Counted from the stretch's first letter, positions 3,449 through 57,784 are shown. The stretch: DNA of 64,000 nt from Actinomycetota bacterium (GCA_026003015.1 BPGL01000001.1:64922-128921), one strand, 5' to 3'. Program-made: numbers and translations. Notes: generated by a model not told the origin, from the sequence alone.

Positions 3449-4786
3449 TCAGGCGGGCTCGGCCAGGAACAGGGCCTCGGCCACGATCATCCGCTCGAGG
3501 TCCGCGAGGTCGACGCTCTCGTCGACGGAGTGCCAGTTCGAGCGGTGGTCGCCGGCGCCGACGATCAGCACCTGGATCCCGGGGAAGGTCTCGGCGAGCA
3601 CCGGGATCAGCGGAACCGATCCGCCGCTGCCCATCTCGAGGACCTCGGCGCCGTCGAAGGCCTGGGCCAGGGCGCGCCGCAGGGCCGCGAACGCCGGGGT
3701 GGTGCGGTCCACCAGGTAGCCGGCCCCCGCCTCAGCGCCCTCCACGCGCACGCGCACGCCCCAGGGGGCGGCCCGGCGGAGGTGCTCGGCGAGCAGATCG
3801 CGGGCCCGGGCGGGGTCGTCGCCCGGCGCGAGGCGAAGGCTGACGCGCGCCGCGGCCGTCGGGACGATCTGGTTCGACGACCCCTGGATCGAGGGGGCGT
3901 CGATGCCCAGCACGGCGAGGGCCGGCGAGGTGAACAGCCGGTCGGCGAGGCTCCCCGTGCCGATCAGCTCGACGCCCTCGAGCACGCCGGCCTCCTCGCG
4001 GAACCCCTGTTCCTCGACCGGGGCTCCCTCCCAGCGGAAGCGCCGAAGCCCCTCGATCGCCACGTCGCCCGCCTCGTCGTGCAGGCTCGCGAGGATCCGC
4101 GCGAGGGCCGTGATGGCGTCGGGGATCGGCCCGCCATAGGCGCCGCTGTGCTGGGCGATCGGGAGCACGTCCACGCGCACGACGCAGTCGGTCACGCCGC
4201 GCACGCTCGTGCCGATCGTGGGAACGCCGGTCCGGTGGTTGCCCCCGTCGGCGACGAGGGCGACGTCGGCCGCGAGCAGCTCCGCGTGCCCGCCGACGAG
4301 CTGCGGCAGGTGCTCGGTCGTGCACTCCTCCTCGCCCTCGACGAGGATCTTCACGCGGCAGCGGGCCCGCCCCCCCAGCGCGCGGATCGCGGCGGCGTGC
4401 ATCACGACGCCGGACTTGTCGTCGGCCGCGCCCCGCCCGTAGAGGCGGCCGTCGCGGACCTCGGGTTCGAACGGGGGCGACGTCCAGGCCGCGGGGTCGC
4501 CGGCGGGCTGGACGTCGTGGTGGGCGTAGAGCAGGACCGTCGGCGCCTGCGCCGGGCCGTCGAGCTCCGCGTACACGGCCGGGTGCCCGCCGTCGAGCTC
4601 GAGCAGCCGCGCGTCGGCCGCCCCGGCGGCCTCGAGGATCTCCCGCGTCGCCTCGGCGCTCGCGCGCACGTGCGCGGGGTCGTGGCCGGGGTGGCCGACC
4701 GAGGGGATCCGAACGAGCCGTTCGAGCTCGGCGACCGTGCGGGGGAAGTCCTCGCGGACCCGGGCCCGGAGCGCGGCGAGATCCAC
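3449..4786 (-). CDS. M20 family metallopeptidase (dipeptidase, ArgE/DapE-like)
   Basis: Within the 566-aa ORF the C-terminal ~445 aa carry M20 motifs (HHDVQP, GRGAADDKSG). Coding signal starts near the GTG at 4786, preceded by GGAG. The residues upstream are low-complexity R/P/G filler. Confidence 0.7.
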   Translation of the reverse strand: MDLAALRARVREDFPRTVAELERLVRIPSVGHPGHDPAHVRASAEATREILEAAGAADARLLELDGGHPAVYAELDGPAQAPTVLLYAHHDVQPAGDPAAWTSPPFEPEVRDGRLYGRGAADDKSGVVMHAAAIRALGGRARCRVKILVEGEEECTTEHLPQLVGGHAELLAADVALVADGGNHRTGVPTIGTSVRGVTDCVVRVDVLPIAQHSGAYGGPIPDAITALARILASLHDEAGDVAIEGLRRFRWEGAPVEEQGFREEAGVLEGVELIGTGSLADRLFTSPALAVLGIDAPSIQGSSNQIVPTAAARVSLRLAPGDDPARARDLLAEHLRRAAPWGVRVRVEGAEAGAGYLVDRTTPAFAALRRALAQAFDGAEVLEMGSGGSVPLIPVLAETFPGIQVLIVGAGDHRSNWHSVDESVDLADLERMIVAEALFLAEPA

Positions 4787-4806
4787 GGTCTCCAGCCTAG
4801 CGGTCC

Positions 4807-5451
4807 TCAGGGGGCGAGCCGCTCGATGCGCCACCCTTCGGCCGAACGCGCGTAGCGGAACCGATCGTGCAGCCGATCCTCGCGCCCCTGCCAGAACTCG
4901 AGCTCGTCGGGCACGAGGCGAAGGCCGCCCCAGTTCGGCGGCCGGGGGACCGCGTGGGGGAAGCGAGCGTCGACCTCGCGCACCCGCCGCTCGAGGTCCT
5001 CGCGGCTCGCGAGGACCTGGCTCTGGGGCGAGGCCCACGCCCCGAGCTGGGCCCCCCGCGGTCGATCGGCGAAGTACACGTCGGACTCCGCGTCGCTCAC
5101 GCGCTCGACCCGTCCGCGGACGGTCACCTGGCGGTCGAGGCGCTTCCACAGGAACACGAGGGCGGCGAAGGGGTTCTCCGCGAGCTCGCGGCCCTTGCGG
5201 CTGTCGAGGTTCGTGTAGAACGCGAACCCCCGGGCGTCCAGACCCCGGAGCAGGACGTGGCGGACGCTCGGGCGCGCGTCGGCTCCCGCCGTGGCGAGCG
5301 CCATCGCGTTGGGCAGCGGCACGCCGGCGCGCACGGCCTCCTCGAACCAGCGGCCGAACTGCGCGATCGGGTCGTCGTCGAGGTCTGCGCGCTCCAGCGG
5401 TGCTCGGGTGTGGGAGCCGGTCGGGGCTCGGATCGTGCGCGGGTCGATCAC
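4807..5451 (-). CDS. pdxH: Pyridoxamine 5'-phosphate oxidase
   Basis: The C-terminal 214 aa of ORF 4807..5853 match PdxH (FAFYTNLDSRKGREL, WGGLRLVPDELEFWQGR). A GTG at 5451 gives the canonical length. The N-terminal extension is an R/G-rich artefact. Confidence 0.75.
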   Translation of the reverse strand: MIDPRTIRAPTGSHTRAPLERADLDDDPIAQFGRWFEEAVRAGVPLPNAMALATAGADARPSVRHVLLRGLDARGFAFYTNLDSRKGRELAENPFAALVFLWKRLDRQVTVRGRVERVSDAESDVYFADRPRGAQLGAWASPQSQVLASREDLERRVREVDARFPHAVPRPPNWGGLRLVPDELEFWQGREDRLHDRFRYARSAEGWRIERLAP

Positions 5452-5549
5452 GGGTCCATCGTAGGGGGGCGGCGTCCCGATCGGGGACGCGGACCGGCCC
5501 CCGCGCCCGCGGGCGGCGCAGGGGCCGGATCGAGCGACGGCGCGACGCC

Positions 5550-5780
5550 TCAGGCGCGCGCCAGCTGGGCCCGGGCCGACACGAGCGCGGGGATCCGCGC
5601 GCCGACCCACAGCGCCGAGGCGCCGACCAGGCCGTAGACCACGCGGGTGATCGCGCTCGTCTCCCCGAAGTCGAGGCCGAACAGCGCCGCCACGAGGTCG
5701 AACTCCGCGACCGCCACGAGCCCCCAGTTCAGGGCACCGACCACCACGAGCACTAGCGCCAGGGTGTCGATCAGCTTCAT
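5550..5780 (-). CDS. DUF378 family small membrane protein
   Basis: The product is MKLIDTLALVLVVVGALNWGLVA...FDLVAALFG with two TM helices, typical of DUF378. GGGAGGGAG lies 7 nt upstream of the ATG at 5780. The longer ORF start at 5804 is not preferred. Confidence 0.65.
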   Translation of the reverse strand: MKLIDTLALVLVVVGALNWGLVAVAEFDLVAALFGLDFGETSAITRVVYGLVGASALWVGARIPALVSARAQLARA

Positions 5781-5876
5781 GAGCTGCTCCCTCCCTTCCT
5801 GCATCCCTGCGTCTAATATCTGTCGAGAGTGAGACTACGGCTTCACCGGCCAAGTGTCAAGAGTATGTAGAAGGTA

Positions 5877-6791
5877 GTGCCGAGATGTCGTAGAGTTGGG
5901 GGCGTGGGCGCGTCGAACGGATGGCTGCGGATCGGCGAGCTGGCTCGCCGCACCGGCTGTTCCCCCGCCCTGCTGCGGGCCTGGGAGCAGCGGTACGGGG
6001 TGCTGCAGCCGGCTCGCACGAAGGGGGGCTTCCGCCTGTACCGCGACAGCGACGTGGCCCGCGTCCGGCGCATGCGCGAGCTGATCGCGGGCGGCCTAGC
6101 GCCCGCGGAGGCCGCGCGCGTGGTGCTCGAGGAGCTGCAGCCCACCGGACCCGCGCTCGACGCGTCGCCCACCGCCGACGCAGCGATCGAGGGCGCGGCG
6201 GCCGCCGACCTCGTGGAGCGGCTCGAGGCCGCGCTCGAGCGCTTCGACGATCGCGAGGCCCAGGCGGTGCTCGACGAGGTGTTCGCCAGGCTCTCGGTGG
6301 AGTCGGCGATCCAGCGGGTCGTGCTCCCGTACCTGGAGCGACTGGGCACGCGCTGGTCGCAGGGCCTCGTGACGATCGCGCAGGAGCATTTCGCGTCGAA
6401 CGTGCTGCGCGCCCGGCTGCTCGGGCTCGCGCGGGGGTGGGGGAGCGGCGTCGGTCCGCTCGCCGTCCTCGCCTGCCCGCCGGGCGAGGAGCACGAGCTG
6501 GGGTTGATCGCGTTCGGGCTCGTGCTCTCGCGCCGGGGGTGGCGTGTCGCCTACCTGGGAGCCGACACGCCCCTGGAGACGCTCACCTCGACCGTCGATC
6601 TGCTCGAGCCCGCCGTCGTCGTGCTCGCGGCCTACGACCCCGAGCGCCTGCGGCCGCACCGAGAGGCCATCCGCCGGCTCGCGGCCTCGGTCCCCGTGGC
6701 GATCGGCGGCGCGCTCGGGGATCTCGACCCCGAGGAGCTCGGCGTCCGGGCGCTCGCGTCCGACGTCGTCGCGGCGGCCGCGGCCCTGTGA
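5877..6791 (+). CDS. MerR-family transcriptional regulator with C-terminal cobalamin-binding domain (CarH/LitR-type light sensor)
   Basis: The N-terminus has a MerR helix-turn-helix (LRIGELARRTG...GFRLY). The C-terminus has a B12-binding Rossmann domain with the His-on motif GEEHELG. The start is GTG at 5877, with an alternative GTG at 5904. Confidence 0.75.
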   Translation: MPRCRRVGGVGASNGWLRIGELARRTGCSPALLRAWEQRYGVLQPARTKGGFRLYRDSDVARVRRMRELIAGGLAPAEAARVVLEELQPTGPALDASPTADAAIEGAAAADLVERLEAALERFDDREAQAVLDEVFARLSVESAIQRVVLPYLERLGTRWSQGLVTIAQEHFASNVLRARLLGLARGWGSGVGPLAVLACPPGEEHELGLIAFGLVLSRRGWRVAYLGADTPLETLTSTVDLLEPAVVVLAAYDPERLRPHREAIRRLAASVPVAIGGALGDLDPEELGVRALASDVVAAAAAL

Positions 6792-6810
6792 GGAGCGGGC
6801 TCGGTCGGGC

Positions 6811-7773
6811 TCAAACGGTGACGACCACCTTGCCGAGGGCGTGACCCCGTTCGAGGTAGCGGACCGCCTCGGCGGCATCGACCAACGGGTAGGTCCGGCC
6901 GACCACCGGCGTAACGGCGCCCTGCTCGATCAGGCCGACGAGAGCCCGCAGGTCCTCGCCGGTCTCCTTCGCGATCACCGGGCGTAGCCGCTGCCTCGTC
7001 ACGAGCGAGAGGAGGGGGGCGCGCAGGATCTGGCGGAAGAACCCTCCCGTCCACTTCCCACCGCCGTCCCCGCCGACGATCGCGAGCGTGCCGGTCGGGG
7101 CGAGGAGGCGACGGAGCACGCGGAGCGGCCGCCGCCCCGCCGTGTCGACGATCGCGTCCCATCGGCCCGCGAGCGCTTCGCGCGTGTAGTCGATCACCTC
7201 GTCGGCGCCGAGCGAGCGCACGAGCGCCAGCTTCGACGTGCTCGCCACCCCGGTGACGTGGGCGCCGAAGGCCTTCGCCACCTGCACGGCCAGCGTGCCG
7301 ACGCCCCCGCCCGCGCCGATCACGAGCACGCGCATCCCCGGCTCCACGCGGACGACGTCGCGGATGGCCTGGAGGGCCGTGAGCCCCGAGATCGGCGCCG
7401 CGGCCGCCTCCTCGAAGGAGAGCCTCGCCGGCTTCGGCACCACGAGCGCGGCCCTGCCCACCGCGCGCTCGGCGAAGGAGCCCTCGACGATGCCGAGGAC
7501 CTCGTCGCCGGGCGCGACGTGGGTGACGTTCGCGCCGACGGCGTCGACGACCCCGGCGACGTCGCGCCCGCGAGGGTGCCGCCGCATCCTCTGAAACTCG
7601 GGCATCAGCCGTGCGAACCTCGGCAGCCCCGTCATCAGGTGCCAAACGTCCGGCCCGGCGCCGGCGGCCCGCACCTGGATCCGGACCTCGTCGTCGCCCG
7701 CGGTCGGCTCCGGAACCTCCTGGAGCTGGAGCACGTCAGCCGTCCCGTACCGGTCCTGCACGATCGCCTTCAT
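6811..7773 (-). CDS. NADPH:quinone oxidoreductase / zinc-type MDR family oxidoreductase
   Basis: 320 aa with an MDR fold (GAGGGVGTLAVQVAKAFGA nucleotide-binding motif). GGAGGGAG precedes the start. Confidence 0.75.
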   Translation of the reverse strand: MKAIVQDRYGTADVLQLQEVPEPTAGDDEVRIQVRAAGAGPDVWHLMTGLPRFARLMPEFQRMRRHPRGRDVAGVVDAVGANVTHVAPGDEVLGIVEGSFAERAVGRAALVVPKPARLSFEEAAAAPISGLTALQAIRDVVRVEPGMRVLVIGAGGGVGTLAVQVAKAFGAHVTGVASTSKLALVRSLGADEVIDYTREALAGRWDAIVDTAGRRPLRVLRRLLAPTGTLAIVGGDGGGKWTGGFFRQILRAPLLSLVTRQRLRPVIAKETGEDLRALVGLIEQGAVTPVVGRTYPLVDAAEAVRYLERGHALGKVVVTV

Positions 7774-7792
7774 CGGCTCCCTCCGCTCCGGG

Positions 7793-7807
7793 GTGTACGA
7801 TGTACAC
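7793..7807. promoter_or_regulatory. Palindromic operator GTGTAC-GAT-GTACAC in the qor/tetR divergent promoter
   Basis: Perfect 6-3-6 inverted repeat, 20 nt upstream of the qor start codon. A second copy lies 33 bp away. Confidence 0.6.
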
Positions 7808-7825
7808 CGACGCGCTCATCCTAGG

Positions 7826-7840
7826 GTGTACGTCGTACAC
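7826..7840. promoter_or_regulatory. Second palindromic operator GTGTAC-GTC-GTACAC
   Basis: Perfect 6-3-6 inverted repeat, 33 bp centre-to-centre from the first copy. It sits upstream of the tetR start. Confidence 0.6.
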
Positions 7841-7872
7841 TCGTCAACGTCCCGATCGCCGCGGGAGGGGGC

Positions 7873-8679
7873 ATGGGTGAGATCGCCGAGGCCAAGGCGG
7901 GTGCACGCGGTGCACGCGGTGCACGCGAGCCGCTGAGGCGCGACCGGATCCTGCGGACGGCGGTGGCCATCGCCGACGAGGGTGGTGTCGAGGCGATCAG
8001 CATGCGGCGGATCGCCCGTCGCCTCGGGGTCGTGCCCATGGCGCTCTACAAGCACGTGGAGAACAAGGACGATCTGCTGAACGGGATGATCGACGTCGTC
8101 GTCGGCGAGATCGACCCCGCGATCGAGGGCGCGGACTGGAAGACGGCGGTGCGTGAGCGGATCCTGTCCGCGCGCCGGACGTTGCTGCGCCACCCGTGGG
8201 CCGCCCGCGTGCTCGAATCGCGGACCGAGCCGACGCCGGCCATCATCGCCTACTTCGACTCGATGATGGGCATCTTCCTCGCGGGCGGCTTCTCGGTCGA
8301 CCTCATGCACCACGCCCTCCACGTGATGGGCAGCCGGATCCTCGGGTTCTCGCAGGAGCTGTTCGACGACGCCTCGAGCGCGCCCGACGAGGAGGCGATC
8401 GCGATGTGGTCGGAGATGGCCGAGCGCTATCCGAACATCGCCGCGCTCATCCGTGAGCTCGCCGCGGGCCAGATCTCCCACGAGCAGGCGACGGCCGTCG
8501 GTGGGGCATGCGACACGCAGGTCGAGTTCGAGTTCGCCCTCGATCTGATCCTCGACGGCCTCGAGCGCCTGCTCGCGTCGAGTCGAGATGGCTCCGACGT
8601 GGCACGGCCGAGTGCCTCCAAGGAGGCACGCACGACGGCCGATCCCGACGACGCGTCGGCCTCACCCGCCCCGATTTAG
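7873..8679 (+). CDS. TetR family transcriptional regulator
   Basis: N-terminal TetR helix-turn-helix (ISMRRIARRLGVVPMALYKHVENKDDLL). GGGAGGGGG precedes the start. It is divergent from the quinone oxidoreductase. Confidence 0.8.
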   Translation: MGEIAEAKAGARGARGAREPLRRDRILRTAVAIADEGGVEAISMRRIARRLGVVPMALYKHVENKDDLLNGMIDVVVGEIDPAIEGADWKTAVRERILSARRTLLRHPWAARVLESRTEPTPAIIAYFDSMMGIFLAGGFSVDLMHHALHVMGSRILGFSQELFDDASSAPDEEAIAMWSEMAERYPNIAALIRELAAGQISHEQATAVGGACDTQVEFEFALDLILDGLERLLASSRDGSDVARPSASKEARTTADPDDASASPAPI

Positions 8680-9440
8680 GCGGGACGAAGCGTCCCGGCG
8701 AACACCTGCCACGCGAGCAGCGACTTCGCGACGAGCGACAGGACGATGTAGGCGAGCTCGCCGAACGCGTAGTCGCGCCAAGGCCCAACCTTCCGGTACT
8801 GCAGCACCATGTTCAGCGCGAAGACGTTGAAGAACACGAAGATCGAGGCGAAGATCGCGTACACGAACCCAGGCGGTCCGCCGCCCTCGTCCCCCGCGCC
8901 GAACAGGTACAGGCCGATGGCGACCCACGGGATCGCTCCAGCGAAGGACCCGAACCAGAACGCCGTCCAGTTCGTCCGCTCCGTGGTCTGGTTGTGGAGC
9001 TCCATGAGCCAGCCGAAGAGGATCATCGTGGCGTTCAGGGCGAGGATGAGGATGAGCGACGCGACGTCGTAGATGCCCACGAGCATCGCGATCACGACGA
9101 TCATCAGCGAGGCGGAGACCGAGTACTCGATCCATCGCGCGGGGTTGATCCCCCGCTCGACGTTGGCCGCGTAGCGGCGGAAGCCGGCCGGTGAGGCGAC
9201 CGAGAGGTGGGCGAGCGCGGAGAGGAACAAGAAGGCGGCCACGAGCGGCCCGATCCTCACCTCGGCGAGCGTTTCGAGGCGTGGCGCCAGGCGACCGGTG
9301 CCCGGGTCCATCTGCAGGAAGGCGCTCGTGATGGGCAGGGCGAAATCGTTCGCCAACGCCAGGACGGCGGCTCCCTGGATCAGGTGCAGCAGGGCCGCCG
9401 CGAGGTTCCAGCTTCGCAGTCCGTTTTGGTCGATCATCAT
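8676..9440 (-). CDS. Heliorhodopsin (retinal-binding 7-TM protein, inverted topology family)
   Basis: 254 aa. Segments match the heliorhodopsin 48C12 family along the whole length: NDFALP, RWIEYSVSASLMIVVIA, NATMILFGWL, FWFGSFAGAIPWV, GFVYAI and ELAYIVLSLVAKSLLAWQVFAGTLRPA. The Schiff-base Lys (in SLVAKS), the counterion Glu (in RWIEYS) and both conserved His are present. AGGAGGG lies 9 nt upstream of the start. Confidence 0.88.
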   Translation of the reverse strand: MMIDQNGLRSWNLAAALLHLIQGAAVLALANDFALPITSAFLQMDPGTGRLAPRLETLAEVRIGPLVAAFLFLSALAHLSVASPAGFRRYAANVERGINPARWIEYSVSASLMIVVIAMLVGIYDVASLILILALNATMILFGWLMELHNQTTERTNWTAFWFGSFAGAIPWVAIGLYLFGAGDEGGGPPGFVYAIFASIFVFFNVFALNMVLQYRKVGPWRDYAFGELAYIVLSLVAKSLLAWQVFAGTLRPA

Positions 9441-9468
9441 CGTTTCCCGCCCTCCTGCCTGGCCGGCC

Positions 9469-10410
9469 TCATGCTCCCGCGAGCGCGCGCTCGATCGCCT
9501 GGTCGAAGGACATCGGACGGATCTGTGGGAAGAGCGTCGCCGCTCGCTCGTCTCGAACGACGGTCTCGTTGCGCATGCCGAGCACGAGCGGCCGGGCGAC
9601 GTCGACCGACACCGAGGTGGTGAGCCCGCACCACATCGCGGAGAGCCGTGGTGTGAGCACCGGCACGCCGAGGATCAGCGGGCGCCTCCCTTCCTTGCGC
9701 GCGAGCGTCAGCATCATCTCCCGGAAGGTCAGCACGTCCGGGCCTCCCACCTCGACGATGGTGTGGTGCTCGCTCGTGGCGACGTGCCGCGCCGCCGAGA
9801 GGTAGCGCACGACGTCCGCGATCGCGATGGGCTGCGTGCGGGTGTCGACCCAGCGCGGCACGATCATGACCGGCAGTCGTCGGACGAGGTCGTGGAGCAT
9901 GCGGAACGAGGCGCTCCGGGCGCCGATGACGATGCCGGCGCGGAGCTCGACGACCTCCGGGCCGTGCTCGGCGAGGATCCGCCCCGTCTCGTGACGGCTG
10001 CTGAGGTGCGCCGACAGGTCGTCGTCGTCTCGCCCGAGCCCTCCCAGGTACACGATCCGGCGGACGCCGGCCGACGCGGCCGCACGCGCGAAGTTCGTGG
10101 CGCCCTCGCGGTCGCGGGCTCGGAAGGCCGCCCCGGCGCCCATCGAGTGCACGAGGTAGTACGCGACGTCGACCGCTGCGAGCGGCTCGACGAGCGTTCC
10201 CGGGACGAGGACGTCGACGCGGGCGGGAGGAAGCCCGGGCCAGCGCTCGGCGAGCGCCTCGGGGTTGCGACCGGCGGGGGTCGGCCGCTCGCCCAGCGAG
10301 AGCAGGTGGTCCACCAGGGCCGAGCCGATGGCTCCGGAGGCTCCGACCACGAGGGGGCCGGCGCGGGTTCTTGCCCATGGATCGCCCGAACTTAGGCGTC
10401 GCCTCGTCAC
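9469..10410 (-). CDS. NAD(P)H-binding NmrA/YbjT-like atypical SDR family protein
   Basis: N-terminal Rossmann motif VVGASGAIGSALV. The rest resembles NAD-dependent epimerase/NmrA-like proteins. It starts at a GTG and lies 28 nt upstream of the heliorhodopsin on the same strand. Confidence 0.65.
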   Translation of the reverse strand: MTRRRLSSGDPWARTRAGPLVVGASGAIGSALVDHLLSLGERPTPAGRNPEALAERWPGLPPARVDVLVPGTLVEPLAAVDVAYYLVHSMGAGAAFRARDREGATNFARAAASAGVRRIVYLGGLGRDDDDLSAHLSSRHETGRILAEHGPEVVELRAGIVIGARSASFRMLHDLVRRLPVMIVPRWVDTRTQPIAIADVVRYLSAARHVATSEHHTIVEVGGPDVLTFREMMLTLARKEGRRPLILGVPVLTPRLSAMWCGLTTSVSVDVARPLVLGMRNETVVRDERAATLFPQIRPMSFDQAIERALAGA

Positions 10411-10498
10411 CCGGTCGCTGGTCGGGATGCGGCGGCGCGTGGTCGAACGCCGCCCCGATCAGAGCCGGGGGATCGGTCACGCGATCTGCTCGGCGACC

Positions 10499-11437
10499 TC
10501 ATCCTCGAGCTCTCCGGGGCTCTCCCGTTGATCTTTGCGTCGCAGGCTGGCGAAGAAGCGTCCCCGTCGTGCGCTGCTCGATGGAAACGCGGTCCCGGAA
10601 GGCCTCGGTGACCCGATCAAGGAAGATCGCAAGGATCACGACGCAAAGGCCGCTCTCGAACCCCAGACCGATCTCCAGCCGGGTGACCGACCGCACCACG
10701 AGCGCGCCGAGTCCCGGTGCGCCACCCAGGCCGGCGATCACGACCATCGACAGCGACAGCATGATCACTTGGTTCACACCGGCCATGATCGTGGGCATCG
10801 CCAATGGGATCTGTACCTGGCGAAGCGTCTGCCCGGTTCTCGAACCGAATGCGTCGGCCGCCTCGACCACCTCCCGGTCTACCTGCCGGATCCCCAGCTC
10901 GGTCAGGCGGACGGCCGGGGGGAGGGCGAAGATGACGCTCGCCACCACGCCGGGTACGACCCCGACGCGGAAGAAGATCACCGCCACGAGGAGGTAGATG
11001 AACGCAGGCATCGTCTGCATGAAGTCCAGGATCGGCCGCATCGTAGCGCTCACGGCGCGGCTGCGGGCTGCCAGGAGTCCGAACGGTACGCCCAGCGCGA
11101 TCGCGACGCCGGCGGCGATCAGCACAAGCGCAAGGGTCTGCATCGTCTCGCTCCAGAAGCCCATCTGATCGACCAGCAGGAAAGCCAGCGCGGTGAACAC
11201 CGCAAGGCTCCAGCCGCGGATCGTGAGTGCGAGCAGCGTGAAGAGTGCGATCAAGGCCGCGGCCGGCGGACCCGTCAGTACATCGGTCAAGGCTGTTACG
11301 AAGAACGATGTAGCGTCGGAGACCAAGTCGAAGACCGGGTCGAGGGTCGACGTGATCCATCGGACCAGGCTGTCAACCGGGCTCGCCAGGTCGACGTCGG
11401 CCAGGAGCTCACGTGGCATCGGCAGCCTCCTCCTCAC
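10499..11437 (-). CDS. proW: Glycine betaine/proline ABC transporter permease
   Basis: 312 aa, multi-TM, with OpuAB/ProW signature regions. Its start overlaps the end of the upstream ATPase gene. Confidence 0.8.
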   Translation of the reverse strand: MRRRLPMPRELLADVDLASPVDSLVRWITSTLDPVFDLVSDATSFFVTALTDVLTGPPAAALIALFTLLALTIRGWSLAVFTALAFLLVDQMGFWSETMQTLALVLIAAGVAIALGVPFGLLAARSRAVSATMRPILDFMQTMPAFIYLLVAVIFFRVGVVPGVVASVIFALPPAVRLTELGIRQVDREVVEAADAFGSRTGQTLRQVQIPLAMPTIMAGVNQVIMLSLSMVVIAGLGGAPGLGALVVRSVTRLEIGLGFESGLCVVILAIFLDRVTEAFRDRVSIEQRTTGTLLRQPATQRSTGEPRRARG

Positions 11438-12608
11438 CTGCGATCGCGGCCAGCAGCGTCGCCCGGGGTACCACTCCCAGCAGGCGGCGCTCGTCGTCGA
11501 CCACGGCGATGGGCACGCGATCCTGTGCGGCGAGCCGCGACAGGTTGATGAGCCGAGTGGAAGGATGAACCTCAGCGTGCTCGCGGATCAAGACATCCCT
11601 CACCCGGGTCTTTCCCTGCGAGATCGCCTGGGCGATCCGGTGGTCCTTGGCCACACCGAGGATCCTGCCGGCTGGATCGAGCACGTACAGGGCGTTCTGC
11701 TCCAGCTCGCTCAGCTTGTTGAGCAGGTCGCGGAGGTCGTCGTCGGGCGAGGCGGTGAGGAGCGGCTTCTTCATCACCTGCTCGGCGGTCAGGCATCGCG
11801 AACGGTCGACGTCGGAGATGAAGTCGGCGACGTACTCGTTGGCTGGCTCTGCGATGATCTCGCCTCCGGTGCCGACCTGTACGACGGCCCCGTCGCGCAT
11901 CACGGCGATGCGGTCCCCGACGCGCATCGCCTCGTTGAGATCGTGGGTGATGAAGACGATCGTCCGCTTAAGGTCCCGTTGCAGATCGAGCAGCAGGTTC
12001 TGCATGTCCCGACGGATGAGCGGGTCGAGGGCGCTGAACGGCTCGTCCATCAGCAGCACGTCGGCATCCGTTGCGAGCCCACGAGCGAGGCCGACGCGCT
12101 GCTTCATGCCGCCCGACAGCTCGTGGGGGAACGCGTCTGCGAAGTTCGTGAGCCCGACGATCTCGAGAGCTTCCATGGCGCGACGCCGACGTTCCGCTGC
12201 ATCGACACCCCGCACCTGAAGCCCATACGCGGCGTTTTCCCAGACCCTCCTATGAGGGAACAGTGCGAAGTGCTGGAAGACCATGCTGATCTTCGTCATC
12301 CTCAGCTCGCGCAGCTGCGAGGCAGACATCCTGGTGACATCCTCGCCATCGACCTCGACCGACCCCGAGGTGGGGTCATGGAGGCGGTTGATCATGCGGA
12401 CCAACGTGGACTTGCCCGAGCCGGAGAGCCCCATGACGACGAAGAGCTCGCCTTCCTCGATGTCGAAGCTGACATCGTGGACCGCGATGAGGAGCTTCTC
12501 TTTGCGGAGGATCTCGTCGCGGGTCATACCGCGGGCGAGCAGGTCGAGTGCCCGCTCCGGCTGCTTGCCGAACACCTTCGTGACGCCGCGCAGCGAGATC
12601 TTGTTCAT
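11409..12608 (-). CDS. proV: Glycine betaine/proline ABC transporter ATP-binding protein with tandem CBS domains
   Basis: Walker A GLSGSGKST, ABC signature LSGGMKQRV and a C-terminal CBS pair, which is the ProV/OpuAA architecture. Confidence 0.85.
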   Translation of the reverse strand: MNKISLRGVTKVFGKQPERALDLLARGMTRDEILRKEKLLIAVHDVSFDIEEGELFVVMGLSGSGKSTLVRMINRLHDPTSGSVEVDGEDVTRMSASQLRELRMTKISMVFQHFALFPHRRVWENAAYGLQVRGVDAAERRRRAMEALEIVGLTNFADAFPHELSGGMKQRVGLARGLATDADVLLMDEPFSALDPLIRRDMQNLLLDLQRDLKRTIVFITHDLNEAMRVGDRIAVMRDGAVVQVGTGGEIIAEPANEYVADFISDVDRSRCLTAEQVMKKPLLTASPDDDLRDLLNKLSELEQNALYVLDPAGRILGVAKDHRIAQAISQGKTRVRDVLIREHAEVHPSTRLINLSRLAAQDRVPIAVVDDERRLLGVVPRATLLAAIAGEEEAADAT

Positions 12609-12807
12609 CGTGTCGGCGCCATCCCCCTTCGCGGTCGACGCATCTCTTCAGATCACTGGATCCGCTTAGGCCGTATCGAACCCCATCGCGTGTCCGAGTG
12701 CCAACCGCTCTGCAGTGGCATCCCTGGTGCCCGCACGGCTTCGCGCTCGATGCCGACCCCGCCCACGACGGGTTCCACCTCGCGGGTGGGCCTCAAGTCT
12801 CGACGCG

Positions 12808-12834
12808 AGAGGGCCCCGATCGACGGGGCCCTCT
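12808..12834 (-). terminator. 11-bp perfect stem-loop just downstream of the proX stop (intra-operon attenuator/terminator candidate)
   Basis: AGAGGGCCCCG-atcga-CGGGGCCCTCT, about 30 nt after the proX stop on the minus strand. There is no U-tract. Confidence 0.4.
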
Positions 12835-12863
12835 TCGCCGGTCCTCGTGGTTCCGCGCTCGGA

Positions 12864-13775
12864 TCAGGACAGCCATGCCTCGACGACGGAGCGGTTCTCC
12901 TCCAGCCATGCCTTGGCCGACTCGAGCTCTTTGCCCTCGGGCCCGTCGACGAGGATCGCGACCTCCAGGTCTGCGAGCGTGGCTCCGTCGAGCTCGAAGT
13001 TCTGGAGCCATCCGGCCACCTCGGGGAAGTCCTCACGGAAGCCCTTGCGGGCGAGCACGTGGATCTCGTCAGGCTGGCCGAGCGCACCCTCGGGATCCTC
13101 GAGGTTCTTCAGGTCGTACTTGCCGTATGCCCAGTGCGGCTCCCACAGGGTCACGACGATCGGCTCCTGCGCCGAGTAGGCCTTGTCGAGCTCTGCGAGC
13201 ATCGCCGGGGTCGAGCTCTCGACCAGCGTGTACTCGTCCTCGAGGCCATAGGTGGGCATCACCTCCTCGCGGGAGATCCGCATCAGCCCAGAGCCGGCCT
13301 CGATCCCGACGATCCGGCCATCGAACATGTCGGCCTTGCCTTGTAGATCGGCGATCGAGTTCACGTCATCGACGTACGCCGGTACGACCCAGGTGAGTGG
13401 CGCTTGGTCGTACCAGACCTTCAAGTCGTCGATGTCCTGGCCGAACTGGGCCCAGTAGTCCGCGTGGGTGGCCGGGAGCCAACCATCGAAGAACAGGTCG
13501 ATGTCACCGTTGGCCAGACCGGAGTACAAGCCTCCGACCTCGAGCTGGGTCACCTCGACGGTGTACCCCCGCTCCTCGAGGATCGCCTGCCACAGGTTCG
13601 TGACCGCGATCGCCTCATCCCACGGGATCAGGCCGATCCTGATCGTGCCACCACCGGTGCCGGCATCGCCGCCGGCCGTGTCCCCCCCGTTCCCGCAGGC
13701 GGTCGCCACGATCGCCACCACGGCGAGCACGGCCAGCATCCGCAGAGAGAGACGTTGCTGCCTCCGTGCATCCAT
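12864..13775 (-). CDS. proX: Glycine betaine ABC transporter substrate-binding lipoprotein
   Basis: Coding starts at the ATG at 13775 (MDARRQQ...), behind a GGGGAGGAGGGG ribosome-binding site. It has a lipoprotein signal (LAVVAIVATAC) followed by an OpuAC-type binding domain. The longer ORF start at 13949 is an artefact. Confidence 0.8.
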   Translation of the reverse strand: MDARRQQRLSLRMLAVLAVVAIVATACGNGGDTAGGDAGTGGGTIRIGLIPWDEAIAVTNLWQAILEERGYTVEVTQLEVGGLYSGLANGDIDLFFDGWLPATHADYWAQFGQDIDDLKVWYDQAPLTWVVPAYVDDVNSIADLQGKADMFDGRIVGIEAGSGLMRISREEVMPTYGLEDEYTLVESSTPAMLAELDKAYSAQEPIVVTLWEPHWAYGKYDLKNLEDPEGALGQPDEIHVLARKGFREDFPEVAGWLQNFELDGATLADLEVAILVDGPEGKELESAKAWLEENRSVVEAWLS

Positions 13776-13810
13776 GCGGACCCCTCCTCCCCAGCGCCCG
13801 AACGACATTG

Positions 13811-13828
13811 ACACACACACACACACAC
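13811..13828. repeat. (AC)9/(TG)9 dinucleotide microsatellite in the proX 5' leader
   Basis: Perfect acacacacacacacacac, 36-53 nt upstream of the proX ATG on the transcribed strand. Confidence 0.9.
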
Positions 13829-14075
13829 CTAGATCGGCATTTGGTCGCGGAGCGGCAGGTTCGGACAAGGACTTCGTTGCGCAGCGTGCAACATGGCGCA
13901 TGTTTCTTGCTGGCTTCCGGGCCCTGGATCGCTTCCGGCTCACGCGCAAATCGCGCGAACGGAGATGAACCCGATGCGGGTAGATCTGGCCGTGTCCAGC
14001 GGGTTCGCCGGGGTTGTGCCGAGCGCTGAAGAGCCGGAGGGCACGGTTGCGGTCCTTCGGTGAGGTGCGGGGACC

Positions 14076-14101
14076 GGGACCGGCCGCGCCCGGCCGGTCC
14101 C
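14076..14101 (-). terminator. GC-rich perfect hairpin downstream of the hypothetical gene 14112..14681
   Basis: GGGACCGGCCG-cgcc-CGGCCGGTCCC, 10 nt after the stop codon. There is no U-tract, as is usual in high-GC genomes. Confidence 0.45.
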
Positions 14102-14111
14102 GGTTCAGCGG

Positions 14112-14681
14112 TCAGTCGATGAACAGTCCGTTGTAGATGCAGTCGGCGCCGCGCATGTGGACACCCGCGCTGACGCGGGCGATCAGAACGTCACCGCGCG
14201 GCGACTCGGCGATGACCTCCTGGTAGTAGTCGTAGCCGTAGTAGCGCGGCATGGTGTCCGACGGCTCATACCCCGACCACCGCCAGAGGCCGTCCGCCCT
14301 GTCCAGGCGGGTGTCGGTCTCGTTCGAGGCGTCTGTCGAGAACGCGAGCGCGTTGTCCACGAGCGCGCGGAGGCCATAGGCGGCCTCCACCTGCCCGCCG
14401 CCGAGGTCGAGGCATCGCGCGACGACCTTGAAGGCTGCGTTCCGGTAAAGGGTGACCTGCTCGCCGACCGACAGCTTCACCCGGTCCACGGTGTACACAC
14501 CGCTCCTGGCCGCGAGCCCCTGGCCTGGGGCGGCCGTCGCTCCCGGCGCGCTCCGAAGCACGGCGACGAGCGCGACGAGCGCGACGAGCGTGACGAGCGC
14601 CGCAACGACGCTCCACCGAGGGAGTCGCAGCACGACGGGGTCGTTCACCCCTTGCCCTCCTTTCCGCCGAGCCCCTTGCAC
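14112..14681 (-). CDS. Hypothetical membrane-anchored/secreted protein
   Basis: 189 aa with an N-terminal TM/signal segment (WSVVAALVTLVALVALVAVL) and a diverse, protein-like composition. No family was recognised. Confidence 0.5.
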   Translation of the reverse strand: MQGARRKGGQGVNDPVVLRLPRWSVVAALVTLVALVALVAVLRSAPGATAAPGQGLAARSGVYTVDRVKLSVGEQVTLYRNAAFKVVARCLDLGGGQVEAAYGLRALVDNALAFSTDASNETDTRLDRADGLWRWSGYEPSDTMPRYYGYDYYQEVIAESPRGDVLIARVSAGVHMRGADCIYNGLFID

Positions 14682-14878
14682 GAGGGGCCAGCTCCTGACC
14701 TGTCGCGCTGTCTATACCACGAGCAACGGCAGGACACGGGGAGCACGAGGCGGTGGCCCAGGTGGTCTCAGGGCCGAGGGAGTCGCTCCGTCACCTCGTT
14801 GTCGATCCCTCCGCGACGACCATCCCGGCTATGGCCGATCTCCCGGGTCCCGCGTCCACGTCCCGGGGAACCAGAGCG

Positions 14879-14951
<73 letters not shown>

Positions 14952-15012
14952 TCGTGCCCACCAGGCTACCGCCTCGCCCCGGCGGCCGGCAGGGCGCGGC
15001 TATGCTCGGTGC

Positions 15013-15386
15013 GTGTCCCCGCGCGTGCTCCTCGTCGACGACGACCCCGTGATCCTGCGCCTGCTCGAGGTGAACTTCCGACTCGAGGGCTTCGAGGTGG
15101 CGACGGCCTCGAGCGGCGAGCAGGGGCTCGAGGCGGCCCGGCGCGAGCCCCCCGACGCGGCGGTGCTCGACGTGATGATGCCGGGCCTCGACGGCTACGA
15201 GGTCGCCCGACGCCTTCGCGACGAGGGGACCGCTGCGCGACCCACCAGCTCGTCTTCCTGACCGCGCGCGGCGTCGAGGCCGACCCGCAGCCCGAGCTCG
15301 CTGGGATCGAGCGCGTCGCCAAGCCGTTCGACCCGGCGGCCCTCGTCCGCCTCGTGCGGTCCCGGATCGGGGAGCCGCAGGGGTGA
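15013..15386 (+). pseudogene. Single-domain CheY-like response regulator receiver, interrupted by a frameshift near 15238-15242
   Basis: The N-terminal 76 aa of the receiver (LLVDDDPVILRLL...LDVMMPGLDGYEVARRLRDEGTAA) are in frame 1 and end at a TGA at 15261. The receiver's C-terminus (THQLVFLTARG...KPFDPAALVRLV) continues in frame 0 up to a stop at 15386, which overlaps the argS start. Confidence 0.55.
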
Positions 15387-17056
15387 TCGAGGACGAGCTG
15401 AAGGAGCTGCTCCGCCGCGCCCTGCAGGCGGCCGCCCCGGGGCTCGGGCTGGATGGGGAGCTCCCCGAGCCGGAGCTGTTCACCCCGCGCCAGAAGGAGC
15501 ACGGCGACGTGGCGACGAACGTCGCCCTCGCGCTCGCCGCCCGTGCCGGTCGTCCACCGGTCGAGGTGGCGCGCGCGATCGTCGAGGCGCTGCCGCCGGC
15601 CCCGTTCGTCGAGCGCGTGGAGGTCGCCGGCCCCGGGTTCATCAACGTGTTCCTCGCCGAGCGTTGGCTCGTCGACGTCGTGCGGGCGGTGGCGGCGGCG
15701 GGGGAGCGCTTCGGGTGGGCGCCGCCCAGCGGTCGACGCGCCCAGGTCGAGTTCGTGAGCGCGAACCCCACGGGACCCCTGCACATCGGGCACGCGCGCA
15801 ACGCCGCCCTCGGGGACGCCCTCGCGCGCCTGCTCGAGGCCGCCGGGTGGCAGGTCGAGCGCGAGTACTACTTCAACGACGCCGGCGGACAGATGGACCG
15901 GTTCGGACGCTCGGTGGAGGCGCGCTACCTCGAGCTCGTGGGCCGCGAGGCCGAGGTGCCCGAGGACGGCTACCACGGCGAGTACGTGCGCGACCTCGCC
16001 CGCGACATCCTCGCGGCCGAGGGACCGGGGCTCGCCGACCTGCCCGCGGACGAACGGCTCGTTCGGCTGCGTTCCGAGGGCGTGCGCCGCGTCCTGGCTC
16101 AGATCGAGCGGACGCTCGAGCGGTTCGGCGTGCGCTTCGACTCGTTCGTCTCCGAGGCCTCGCTCGCCGAGCGCGGCGAGGTCGGCGCGGCGGTCGATCG
16201 CCTGCGCGCCGCCGGCTACGCCTACGAGGCCGACGGGGCGGTGTGGTTCCGCTCGACGGCGTTCGGGGACGACAAGGACCGCGTGCTCGTCCGGTCCAAC
16301 GGTGTTCACACGTACTTCGGCGCCGACTGCGCGTACCTCATCGACAAGTTCTCCCGGGGGTTCGACCGGTTGGTGTACGTGTGGGGGGCGGACCACCACG
16401 GCGACGTCGCCCGGCTGCGGGGGGCGGCGGCCGCTTTGGGCTACGACCCGGAGGCGGTGGAGATCGTGCTGTACCAGTGGGTGACGTTCCGCCGGGGTGG
16501 CGAGCCGGTCGCGATGAGCAAACGCGCCGGCACCTTCGTGACGCTCGATCAGTTGATCGACGAGGTGGGGGCCGACGCCGCGCGCTGGCACCTGCTCACG
16601 TTCAGCAACGACGCCGCGATGTCCTTCGACATCGACGAGGTGAAGCGACGCTCGATGGACAACCCCGTCTACTACGTGCAGTACGGGCACGCGCGCATCG
16701 CCTCGATCCTGCGCAAGGCGCGCGAGGCGGGGGTCGAGCTTCGGCCGATCGCCGAGGTCGACCTCGATCTGCTGGCTCATCCGAGCGAGCTCGACCTGCT
16801 GCGCGCGATCGCCGGGGTGCCGGGCCTGATCGCGACGGCGGCCTCGATGCGCGCGCCGCACCGGCTCACGCACGCCGCGCACGACCTCGCCGGTCGGTTC
16901 CATCGCTTCTACACCGAGTGCCGCGTGGTCTCCGACGACGAGGCGCTCACGCAGGCCCGCCTGTGGCTCGCGCGAGCCACCCAGCTCGTGCTCGCGGGCC
17001 TGTTGGGTCTGCTGGGGATCGGGGCCCCCGAGCGGATGGAGCGCCCCGATGCCTGA
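15383..17056 (+). CDS. argS: Arginine--tRNA ligase
   Basis: 557 aa with the class I HIGH motif (ANPTGPLHIGHARN) and argS-specific regions. The GTG start overlaps the upstream stop (GTGA). Confidence 0.9.
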   Translation: MIEDELKELLRRALQAAAPGLGLDGELPEPELFTPRQKEHGDVATNVALALAARAGRPPVEVARAIVEALPPAPFVERVEVAGPGFINVFLAERWLVDVVRAVAAAGERFGWAPPSGRRAQVEFVSANPTGPLHIGHARNAALGDALARLLEAAGWQVEREYYFNDAGGQMDRFGRSVEARYLELVGREAEVPEDGYHGEYVRDLARDILAAEGPGLADLPADERLVRLRSEGVRRVLAQIERTLERFGVRFDSFVSEASLAERGEVGAAVDRLRAAGYAYEADGAVWFRSTAFGDDKDRVLVRSNGVHTYFGADCAYLIDKFSRGFDRLVYVWGADHHGDVARLRGAAAALGYDPEAVEIVLYQWVTFRRGGEPVAMSKRAGTFVTLDQLIDEVGADAARWHLLTFSNDAAMSFDIDEVKRRSMDNPVYYVQYGHARIASILRKAREAGVELRPIAEVDLDLLAHPSELDLLRAIAGVPGLIATAASMRAPHRLTHAAHDLAGRFHRFYTECRVVSDDEALTQARLWLARATQLVLAGLLGLLGIGAPERMERPDA

Positions 17057-53613: not shown

Positions 53614-54564
53614 GTGGAGATGGCGGCGCTGATCCGGGGGGTCCTCGAGGGCGACGCGCGGGCGGTCGCGCGGGCGATCTCGCTCGTCGAGGACGACCGC
53701 CCCGAGCTCGAGGCGCTCGCCGCGGGCCTCGTGGAGCACACGGGAGGCTCGTGCACGATCGGCCTCACGGGCGCGCCGGGCGTCGGGAAGTCGACGATCG
53801 CGGCCGGCCTCGTCGGGGCCCTACGGGCCCGTGATCTGCGCGTGGCCGTCCTGGCGGTCGACCCGACCTCGCCGGCCACGGGCGGGGCGCTGCTCGGCGA
53901 CCGGGTCCGGATGCAGGCGCACGCGACCGACCCCGGCGTGTTCATCCGTTCGATGGCGACCCGGGGACACCTGGGGGGGATGGCCCTGGCCACCCCCGAA
54001 GCGGTCCGCGTGCTCGAGGCCGCCGGCTACGCGCAGATCATCGTCGAGACGGTCGGCGTCGGTCAGGCCGAGGTCGACGTCGCGGCGGCGACCGACACGG
54101 CCGTCGTGGTCCTCGCCCCCGGGCTGGGAGACGCCGTCCAGATCGCGAAGGCGGGGATCTTGGAGATCGCCGACGTGTTCGTCGTGAACAAGGCCGACCG
54201 CGAGGGCGCCGACGTGCTCGTGCGCGAGCTGCGCCAGATGCTCGAACTGGGCACGCCTCGCGAGTGGTCGCCTCCGGTCCTGGCGGTGACGGCGACGACC
54301 GGGGCGGGGCTGGACGCGCTGCTCGACGCCGTCGAGGCCCACGTCGCGTGGGCCCGGGGCTCCGGCGCCCTCGAGGCGAAACGGCGCGCCCGGCTCCTGC
54401 AGGAGGTCGCGGCGCTCGCGGCCGCGCGCCTTCGCGTGGAGCTCGAGCGAGCCCTGCACGCCGACGACGCGCTCGTCGCCGACCTCCTCGCGCGTCGGCT
54501 CGACCCCCGGGGGGCGGCGGCGCGCCTGCTGCACCGGCTGGACGGCGCGCACCGCCGGGGTTGA
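53614..54564 (+). CDS. meaB: Methylmalonyl-CoA mutase-associated GTPase MeaB/ArgK
   Basis: G1 GAPGVGKST, NKAD and a typical length. No mutase gene is adjacent. Confidence 0.8.
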   Translation: MEMAALIRGVLEGDARAVARAISLVEDDRPELEALAAGLVEHTGGSCTIGLTGAPGVGKSTIAAGLVGALRARDLRVAVLAVDPTSPATGGALLGDRVRMQAHATDPGVFIRSMATRGHLGGMALATPEAVRVLEAAGYAQIIVETVGVGQAEVDVAAATDTAVVVLAPGLGDAVQIAKAGILEIADVFVVNKADREGADVLVRELRQMLELGTPREWSPPVLAVTATTGAGLDALLDAVEAHVAWARGSGALEAKRRARLLQEVAALAAARLRVELERALHADDALVADLLARRLDPRGAAARLLHRLDGAHRRG

Positions 54565-54672
54565 CGATGCGCGCGGCGCGGTCGTATACACGGGGCAGGA
54601 GAAGCTGCAGCGCGTTGCAGCTGCATGCCATTGCCGGATCCGACCCGGTCCGGTGTGGGGAGGGCGAGGACC

Positions 54673-55365: not shown

Positions 55366-55369
55366 TCGC

Positions 55370-57633: not shown

Positions 57634-57784
57634 GCGCAGGCCCCGCGCGCGCAGCAGCTCCAGCACCCGCCCGAGGTCGTCGGCCGATCGCTCCACGCGG
57701 CCATCGTAGCAGCGACCTTGCAGGTGCAAGCGCAGGATGCAGGTGCCACCCCCGGCGTGGCGATCGGCGGCTACGCTCGGAGCC

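Follow-up and report, generated by a model that had tools for sequence, protein, structure and literature searches.

A heliorhodopsin gene paired with a gene for a nucleotide-binding protein

The window analyzed here is a 64,000-nt stretch of DNA from an Actinomycetota bacterium (GCA_026003015.1 BPGL01000001.1:64922-128921), and the gene in question encodes a heliorhodopsin (HeR). It ends a series of genes on one strand, proX, proV, proW, an NAD(P)H-binding gene (NADbd) and HeR itself (Table 1), as an earlier note on this DNA had described. A TetR-family regulator gene converges on HeR with the 4-nt overlap of 3′ ends that the note reported, and a gene for a CarH/LitR-type regulator, placed by the note at ∼2 kb, is 1.9 kb away from the 3′ end of HeR. 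DUF378, LitR, the NADbd product and HeR, four proteins that recur together in HeR neighborhoods, are encoded in the window within 5 kb.

Table 1. Features of the heliorhodopsin locus, with positions counted from the first nucleotide of the window; L081–L084 are independent assemblies of the same organism
Feature	Position	Strand	Details
HeR gene	8676..9440	−	254 aa; H19, H78, E105, K239; PF18761, NF038020 and PDB matches
NADbd–HeR spacer	9441..9468	−	28 nt; GGAGG ribosome-binding site, without hairpin
NADbd, YbjT-like atypical short-chain dehydrogenase/reductase (SDR)	9469..10377	−	302 aa from ATG 10377, without the extra C at 10367
Extra C in C-run	10367		absent from L081, L082, L083 and L084; shifts the NADbd 5′ end
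Extra G in G-run	10565		absent from L081–L084; alters the proW C-terminus and stop
proW-type permease (betaine/choline/proline ABC family)	10499..11419	−	PF00528 (BPD_transp_1); 11-nt overlap with the proV end
proV-type ATPase	11409..12608	−	ABC_tran and two C-terminal CBS domains; TIGR01186 419.4 bits against a cutoff of 326.6
proX–proV intergenic gap	12609-12863	−	255 nt
Hairpin	12801..12840	−	GC-rich, 11-bp perfect core stem, 24 nt past the proX stop, without U-tract
proX/OpuAC-type substrate-binding lipoprotein	12864..13775	−	ATG 13775; signal peptide end ...ATAC; PF04069 E = 1.1e-72
Unknown ORF	14112-14681	−	without family match
tRNA-Arg(CCG)	14880..14951	−	borders the lower-GC3 block of ORF 14112-14681, proX, proV and proW
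TetR-family regulator	7873..8679	+	TetR_N, TetR_C_1; convergent with HeR, 4-nt overlap
NAD(P)H:quinone oxidoreductase, zinc alcohol dehydrogenase superfamily, PIG3-like	6811..7773	−	divergent from TetR
Palindromic operators (predicted) TGTACGATGTACA, TGTACGTCGTACA	7794-7806, 7827-7839		TetR/quinone-oxidoreductase divergent region
CarH/LitR class I B12-dependent photoreceptor repressor	5904..6791	+	MerR_1, B12-binding_2, B12-binding; Wx9EH, ExHxxG
CarH-type operator and promoter (predicted)	5832..5893	−	∼11-nt-spaced ACA repeats 5855-5893; −35 TTGACA 5860-5855; −10 TAGTCT 5837-5832; faces DUF378
DUF378 small membrane protein	5550..5804	−	PF04070 E = 2.4e-20

The open reading frame (ORF) is a genuine heliorhodopsin, and the note's identification is borne out. 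It matches the Pfam Heliorhodopsin family PF18761 over profile positions 1–242 of 242 (E = 1.2e-106, 355.9 bits against a cutoff of 26.7) and the NCBIfam HeR equivalog NF038020 with 350.7 bits against a cutoff of 100, and its residues 7–254 match the solved structures of TaHeR (6is6, E = 1.4e-73) and 48C12 (6su3, E = 1.5e-68). When it is aligned with these two proteins, the lysine (LVAKS), the glutamate (RWIEYS) and both histidines that the note had claimed are all in place: K239 (SLVAKS) is the Schiff-base lysine, aligned with the SLVAKS lysine of 48C12 (K241) and TaHeR; E105 is the counterion, aligned with RWVEYS and RWFEYS (48C12 E107); and H19 (LLHLIQ) and H78 (LAHLSV) correspond to 48C12 H23 and H80. 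The long TM1–TM2 loop of the solved homologs is likewise present. Loops 84–106 (4 K+R) and 213–228 (3 K+R) are basic, while loop 180–192 is acidic (0 K+R); since these loop charges (positive-inside rule) and the homology agree, we infer an inverted topology with a cytoplasmic N-terminus. By its sequence, the protein would be a sensor-type, retinal-binding, non-pumping heliorhodopsin with seven inverted transmembrane helices.

HeR begins with ATGATG, 10 nt past a GGAGG motif. An identical protein from an Actinomycetota metagenome-assembled genome is deposited as GIU96274.1, ‘hypothetical protein KatS3mg013_0077’, and nine metagenome contigs encode it too, in an unchanged gene order; the nearest non-identical homolog is 75% identical. 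A scan of ∼45 window ORFs found no phytoene synthase or desaturase, lycopene cyclase or Blh family, in accord with the note's remark that retinal-synthesis genes are absent from the window.

Immediately upstream of HeR, the gap to NADbd is 28 nt long, as the note stated, with NADbd ending at 9469. Promoters and terminators were sought over positions 5400–14300 with a sigma-70 consensus, which actinobacterial promoters may escape, and the NADbd–HeR spacer contained neither kind of site; the only promoter-like match of the scan lies in the TetR/quinone-oxidoreductase region. Because the 28-nt gap contains just a ribosome-binding site, NADbd and HeR almost certainly form one expression unit.

The NADbd protein passes the Pfam family NAD_binding_10 (PF13460, E = 5.8e-12, 46.3 bits against a cutoff of 27.2). 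For the earlier label ‘NmrA-like’, the window's protein scores 16.4 bits with Pfam NmrA, under the cutoff of 27; a long-form homolog in locus L013 passes that family at 44.5 bits. Its nearest homologs, 59–64% identical, are named YbjT (DUF2867 family) or NAD(P)H-binding, its best PDB relatives are NDUFA9-like chains (9g83_P, 1.5e-17), and on these matches it is best named a YbjT-like NAD(P)H-binding protein. It has the GxxGxxG motif of Rossmann NAD(P)-binding folds. The position of the SDR catalytic YxxxK, equated by reading the alignment, is occupied by HLSSR here and by HLxSR in 13/13 aligned homologs, a substitution that suggests a non-canonical role or non-catalytic nucleotide binding. The protein belongs to a short, stand-alone subfamily whose genes are divergent from an ECF sigma factor gene in four contexts (L170–L173), without an adjacent HeR. 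In these contexts the divergent mates comprise the ECF sigma factor and a 460–480-aa protein without a Pfam match, presumably an anti-sigma factor, and P-II and glutamate dehydrogenase genes lie downstream. The window holds a second gene of the NAD_binding_10/NmrA families (57737-58672), which overlaps an opposite-strand ORF for a Fur-family regulator.

Recurrent neighbors of heliorhodopsin genes

The flanks of 160 HeR loci were searched with the window's proteins: 80 loci from species-representative genomes and 80 metagenomic loci, all at most 74% identical to the query. Within 5 kb of HeR, 29/160 loci encode a LitR homolog and 17/160 a member of the NADbd family; among the 50 genome loci whose flanks extend 4 kb or more on each side, 19 have the LitR homolog in this range. 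Fasciclin genes were counted in 21 flanks, DUF1295 in 11 and DUF378 in 8, with the families confirmed by Pfam. The recurrent neighbors of HeR are thus CarH/LitR, the YbjT/DUF2867 family, DUF378, fasciclin and DUF1295. The regulator and the NAD(P)H-binding gene, which the note had treated as flanking context, are both recurrently linked to HeR, and the transporter that it had emphasized is not: neither proW nor proX has a homolog in the fetched flanks of any of the 160 loci, and the proV matches, all below 40% identity, are generic ABC ATPases. TetR has no homolog in these flanks and the quinone oxidoreductase has one.

Several arrangements recur. In four loci (L144, L146, L148 and L150) the gene that follows HeR, after a gap of 15–45 nt and in the same orientation, belongs to the NADbd family; in four others (L013, L014, L015 and L018) a long, DUF2867-fused form lies downstream of litR, in litR–NADbd operons divergent from HeR. 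Loci from Thermoleophilia, Gaiellales, Solirubrobacteraceae and Dehalococcoidia have, divergent from litR, a promoter directed toward HeR. This LitR-operated promoter reads directly into HeR in L014 and L117, and reaches it through DUF378, small membrane protein and fasciclin genes in L001, L013, L016, L018 and L023. In two Chloroflexia loci (L062 and L072), litR lies downstream of HeR in the same orientation.

Across 1.63 Mb of HeR loci there are 12 matches to the pattern ACA-N8-ACA-N5-TTGAC, of which 10 lie at a litR 5′ end and point toward HeR, four of the ten in loci outside those used to define the pattern. The pattern stands ∼110 nt upstream of the HeR match in L014 and L117, where a predicted CarH/LitR-type operator (7888-7950 and 2664-2780, respectively) overlaps a TTGACA-N17-TAGAGT promoter that reads into HeR.

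One actinobacterial locus without HeR (L174, 3331-5987) has the order DUF378 <-|-> litR–Pyr_excise–NADbd, and its NADbd is 61% identical to that of the window. Pyr_excise is a pyrimidine-dimer DNA glycosylase, and this gene order would tie the window's NADbd subfamily to a UV/light-damage operon. In many Thermoleophilia/Gaiellales-type loci (L001, L013, L016, L018, L023 and L091–L118), the LitR-operated promoter is separated from HeR by up to three tandem genes, and at least one, that encode secreted fasciclin-domain proteins (PF02469), a puzzling arrangement that would make a light-regulated fasciclin–HeR operon.

A CarH-type operator that faces DUF378

The window's LitR carries the class motifs as W-SQGLVTIAQ-EH and EEHELG, and scores 160.8 bits against the NCBIfam CarH model, under the equivalog cutoff of 400. 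CarH operators have the consensus nAnnTnnACAn, and ACA repeats at ∼11-nt spacing over a TTGACA −35 element are the known CarH architecture. The region between litR and DUF378 contains such an array; it aligns base for base with the operator of L174 and matches the pattern at the 10 litR 5′ ends in related loci.

Three motif searches of the window, with triple nAnnTnnACAn, with ACA-N8-ACA-N8-ACA and with a pattern taken from the litR promoter of the window itself, found nothing outside 5855-5876. A position weight matrix built from seven related operators and scanned over the 64 kb likewise scores only in the litR–DUF378 intergenic region, nowhere else. The LitR-operated promoter in the window is therefore predicted to drive DUF378, with DUF378/litR and not HeR as the target of the operator, and LitR control of HeR is here rejected as unsupported because the operator searches score only in that region. 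Relative to the loci described above, the neighborhood in the window is rearranged: HeR is no longer behind a recognizable LitR operator. Elsewhere in the window, a MeaB gene and cobalt-uptake genes (cbiM, a cbiN-like PDGLE gene and cbiQ) are present at 53614-56511 and 57235-58672; they are relevant to the B12 supply of LitR.

The transporter genes and their junction with the pair

The genes upstream of NADbd encode, by domain content, a ProU/OpuA-type quaternary-amine ABC importer (the proW start was adopted from the L081 gene call). Betaine, choline and proline are candidate substrates: the permease scores 307.6 bits with TIGR03416 (ChoW) and 252 bits with ProW, and proX scores 133.6 bits with the choline-binding model TIGR03414; the ChoX, ChoW, ProW and ProX models all fall below their cutoffs. 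That proX, proV and proW lie upstream on one strand agrees with the earlier note, whereas its ‘short gaps’ do not describe the 255 nt between proX and proV. The hairpin that it placed after proX is present and folds strongly (12790-12870, −42 kcal/mol, z = −2.8, with 0/200 shuffles as good). An Rfam scan of positions 5000–15500 returned the tRNA and no riboswitch or other known cis-element.

The composition of these genes sets them apart. The G+C content at third codon positions (GC3) is 0.85–0.88 in proX, proV, proW and the unknown ORF at 14112-14681, compared with 0.93 in HeR, 0.91 in NADbd and 0.93–0.97 in housekeeping genes. The G+C content of the window, ∼72% overall, dips to 0.655–0.686 in 8001–14000, against 0.72–0.76 elsewhere. 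Low G+C and GC3 next to the tRNA-Arg gene are compatible with horizontal acquisition of proXVW. As a search for an att-like repeat turned up no copy of the tRNA-Arg 3′ end that exceeds 13 nt, the case for acquisition stands on GC3, and the candidate of a tRNA-bounded island was dropped. The transporter linkage looks lineage-specific, and is possibly recent, because proW and proX are missing from all 160 loci, proXVW have lower GC3 and a tRNA gene is adjacent. The association of HeR with a betaine/choline transporter that the note proposed is accordingly not conserved across the survey, in which it is confined to this hot-spring actinobacterium.

A minus-strand (GT)9 repeat at 13811-13828, ∼35–50 nt upstream of the proX ATG, varies in length between assemblies of the same organism, and the window has three GT units more than L081 and L083. 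In the proX promoter/leader region, this repeat could alter proX expression, or it could be an assembly-prone repeat.

The window was compared by alignment with L081–L084, four independent assemblies of this organism (99.87% identity). The ‘88-nt gap’ between proW and NADbd that the earlier note gave turns out to be particular to this window, as it depends on two homopolymer indels (10565 and 10367) that are missing from four to six of the independent assemblies. As the window reads, the in-frame NADbd start is GTG 10410 and the proW stop is at 10499; in the consensus without the extra G the stop is at 10477. When both extra bases are removed, the longest NADbd ORF starts at GTG 10480, overlaps the proW stop as GTGA and is 336 aa long, which is the gene callers' version (L085 and L086 have the same 336-aa call as L081), while an in-frame ATG at 10377 gives MGKNRAGPLVVGASG... 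and 302 aa. The start is more plausibly ATG 10377, with a 99-nt spacer to proW, because the best 120 NADbd homologs are mostly 297–305 aa long. The 336-aa version with the GTGA overlap is less likely given these homolog lengths; its extra 34 codons have a GC3 of ∼0.79 (hand count) and form a low-complexity extension.

Between the transporter genes and HeR, which share one strand, there are thus the NADbd gene and a spacer of 88–99 nt. On the coding strand, the scan found neither a sigma-70-like promoter nor an intrinsic-terminator-like site in this spacer, which is not AT-rich (G+C 0.73, against 0.54 in the LitR promoter region). Its RNA fold is unremarkable, and that of the HeR 3′ region is not distinctive (z about −1.7 to −1.8 in both). 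Because the spacer lacks promoter-like and terminator-like sites, read-through from proVW into NADbd–HeR may occur; co-transcription is neither contradicted nor demonstrated by this geometry. Of the operon membership that the note had claimed, the shared strand holds, and joint transcription with the transporter is a possibility; no sign of a functional link was seen.

Relative to the independent assemblies, single-base homopolymer insertions are present in the window at 10367, 10565, 14657 and 14886, and several genes appear broken or fused relative to the L081 gene calls in regions that include 2076-2926 and about 3449-5450. A 214-aa PNPOx gene has no clean ORF in the window, an M20 peptidase reads 566 aa instead of the 445 in L081, and a second permease present in the L081 calls is missing after 2076. 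The pattern suggests long-read homopolymer errors, and ORF boundaries elsewhere in the window therefore need care.

The convergent TetR gene

The note had described HeR as flanked by light and redox regulators; a role of TetR as a redox regulator of HeR is not supported by our results. TGTAC-N3-GTACA perfect palindromes occur twice, against 0.04 expected and with none in 100 shuffles; they are probable TetR operators. The TetR gene forms a module of its own, because it shares its divergent region and both palindromes with the PIG3-type quinone oxidoreductase. Regulation of HeR by TetR was rejected on these operators and on the absence of a TetR homolog from the 160 HeR loci.

Comparison with known systems

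The statement in the earlier note that no biochemical function is established for heliorhodopsins is outdated, as regulatory roles have been published for individual HeRs (PMC11109279 and references therein). The window's HeR resembles 48C12 and TaHeR in its full-length alignment, its lysine, glutamate and two histidines, its long TM1–TM2 loop and its K/R-rich cytoplasmic loops; its context differs from that of 48C12, which adjoins a glutamine synthetase gene (PMC11109279 Suppl. Data 2).

An experimental case is OcHeR of Ornithinimicrobium cerasi, which binds the ABC transporter OmrDE and raises drug transport under light, with contacts through residues of the intracellular loops ICL1 and ICL2 (Cho et al. 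2024, PMC11109279). Both are actinobacterial HeRs encoded on the same strand as ABC genes, and the window's HeR has positive residues in ICL1 and ICL3. However, OmrDE is a heterodimeric subfamily-B multidrug-resistance ABC encoded directly adjacent to helR (37 nt), whereas the window's ABC system is a ProU/OpuA-type importer that depends on a substrate-binding protein (SBP), NADbd lies in between and the adjacency is not conserved.

Cho et al. sort the neighbors of helR into ten groups, including an ‘SDR family’ and a ‘MerR family’, and predict co-transcription with a neighbor for only 38.6% of 448 helR genes (PMC11109279). Their catalog lists, in Thermococcus sp. 2319x1, the order helR-56-SDR-18-proX-permease-permease-ATPase-glycine/betaine SBP (PMC11109279 Suppl. 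Data 1 and 6). By the catalog description, this locus shares with the window an HeR, an SDR and a betaine-type ABC transporter in the same relative order with short gaps; it differs in being archaeal and in having two permeases and two binding proteins. The catalog also lists Rhodococcus helR/SDR pairs with an adjacent TetR, e.g. GntP-SDR-helR | TetR (PMC11109279). There too HeR is tightly paired with an SDR-fold gene, with a TetR-family gene adjacent and a MerR-family gene nearby. In Rhodococcus, however, helR precedes the SDR gene with a 4-nt overlap, with TetR on the opposite strand next to helR; in the window the SDR-like gene comes first, and the convergent TetR has its own predicted operators and target. 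The arrangement in the window is thus made of cataloged classes of HeR neighbor, and the trio of HeR, SDR and betaine-type ABC transporter has one cataloged, unexamined precedent in Thermococcus.

Cho et al. place the MerR family among the neighbors that HeR might modulate, rather than treating it as a B12 photoreceptor with the helR promoter as its target (PMC11109279), and the literature searched contained no paper with both heliorhodopsin and CarH. The window's regulator shares with CarH/LitR photoregulation in Thermus, Myxococcus, Streptomyces and Bacillus the MerR helix-turn-helix, the Wx9EH and ExHxxG motifs, the operator over TTGACA and the divergent promoter. The classical targets of CarH/LitR are carotenoid genes. 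In contrast, the putative targets here and in the related loci are DUF378, fasciclin, HeR, YbjT/DUF2867, DUF1295 and Pyr_excise genes, and in the window the recognizable operator does not precede HeR.

Weighing the explanations

We propose that HeR shares a two-gene expression unit with a YbjT-like NAD(P)H-binding protein, an SDR-fold protein that is catalytically atypical. The pair, together with the CarH/LitR and DUF378 genes 2–4 kb away, would represent a rearranged form of a light-response neighborhood found repeatedly in Actinomycetota and Chloroflexota. The pair would, in this lineage, have ended directly downstream of proV–proW, from which it probably receives some read-through, and this juxtaposition would be lineage-specific and probably secondary. 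By analogy with characterized non-viral HeRs, a light-driven conformational change of HeR would reach a bound partner by way of the K/R-rich loops on its cytoplasmic side. The YbjT-like protein encoded with it, a possible reporter or user of NAD(P)H, would be the likeliest partner, and ProVWX a less probable one. Taken together, a HeR and YbjT-like partner unit in a rearranged light-response neighborhood, in a probably secondary juxtaposition with a transporter, is the account that we consider somewhat more likely than not. Several observations weigh against it. The searches for CarH-type operators gave no site in front of NADbd, HeR, proV or proX, which leaves control of HeR by LitR unsupported in this organism. 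The NADbd homologs adjacent to HeR elsewhere are of the long, DUF2867-fused form and just 43–50% identical to the window's protein, and its nearest short-form relatives pair with the ECF sigma factor of L170–L173 and not with HeR. Since the closest subfamily sits away from HeR and the HeR-adjacent homologs are of the long form, the pairing in the window may have arisen independently and not reflect conserved synteny. Some chance adjacency is also expected, as SDR-fold genes are abundant in Actinomycetota.

Other accounts distribute the roles differently. In favor of a functional coupling of HeR to the importer, with HeR as the co-transcribed terminal gene of proVW(-X) that would modulate compatible-solute uptake by light in the manner of OcHeR–OmrDE, are the shared strand, the proV/proW overlap, the spacer that is not AT-rich and is devoid of promoter- and terminator-like sites on the coding strand and, in the consensus, the GTGA overlap of the longest NADbd ORF with the proW stop; the Thermococcus parallel and the one HeR that experimentally regulates an ABC transporter (PMC11109279) point the same way, and the greater frequency of HeR in saltwater Aquiluna than in freshwater relatives (PMC12422013) is circumstantial support. 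Nevertheless, the survey yields no locus with proW or proX, and ∼2 cases in ∼600 loci are, on a rough estimate, near chance for a 4-gene operon in a ∼3000-gene genome. The composition of proXVW is unlike that of HeR and NADbd, the homolog lengths favor ATG 10377 and a 99-nt spacer over the overlap, the importer and OmrDE are ABC systems of different kinds, and proX is set apart from proV by a strong hairpin and 255 nt; we consider such coupling unlikely. It is similarly doubtful that HeR and NADbd are still light-induced under LitR control, through a diverged operator or a LitR-dependent intermediate regulator, with the transporter irrelevant. The Wx9EH and ExHxxG motifs of the regulator 1.9 kb away are intact, relatives have HeR operons and NADbd genes behind CarH-type operators or within litR operons, and cbiMNQ cobalt uptake and MeaB are encoded in the window. 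Against this, the sole operator-like site in the 64 kb, at 5855-5893, faces DUF378, the spacer upstream of NADbd has neither ACA repeats nor TTGACA, and the quinone-oxidoreductase/TetR module stands between litR and HeR, which is on the opposite strand.

The gene order could also be an accident of rearrangement, with HeR acting alone or with a partner encoded elsewhere, such as the glutamine synthetase or photolyase of other HeRs. The modest share of helR genes predicted to be co-transcribed with a neighbor in the survey of Cho et al. is in keeping with this, as is the location of the nearest NADbd orthologs, mostly away from HeR; this lineage's HeR has no relative above 75% identity with which local synteny could be compared. 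Yet the 28-nt spacing with only a ribosome-binding site, and the enrichment of YbjT/DUF2867, LitR and DUF378 near HeR where TetR (0), the quinone oxidoreductase (1) and proW/proX (0) are not enriched, make an absence of local coupling improbable in our judgment. Finally, an ancestrally CarH/LitR-controlled HeR could have been rewired behind an osmoprotectant importer, with HeR, with or without NADbd, gating the activity or expression of ProVWX and with Thermococcus as an independent second instance; this combination we regard as very unlikely. The pairing of HeR with its YbjT-like neighbor, in a rearranged light-response neighborhood, is the reading that we retain.

Implications

The gene deposited as a ‘hypothetical protein’ is a real heliorhodopsin. 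By itself the locus is incremental, because its neighbor classes are already cataloged: it adds one more HeR next to members of the ‘SDR’, ‘MerR’ and ‘ABC transporter’ classes. If the rewired arrangement were true, light or redox state would be coupled to compatible-solute uptake; conservation gives light-coupled betaine uptake no support, it is a speculation of low probability, and the transporter link, which is not conserved, should not be generalized.

Only a few partners of heliorhodopsins have been demonstrated: glutamine synthetase, photolyase, one ABC exporter and, in viruses, proton transport. The more valuable lead lies mostly outside the window, in the HeR operons that stand directly behind a CarH/LitR-type operator–promoter in many Actinomycetota and Chloroflexota, where they accompany DUF378, fasciclin, DUF1295 and YbjT/DUF2867 genes and, once, a pyrimidine-dimer glycosylase gene. 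A CarH-type operator at HeR predicts that the rhodopsin is induced, in a B12- and light-dependent manner, by a second photoreceptor. If this is true, HeR would be induced by light as part of a photo-damage response under a second, B12-based photoreceptor, which would narrow the search for its partners.

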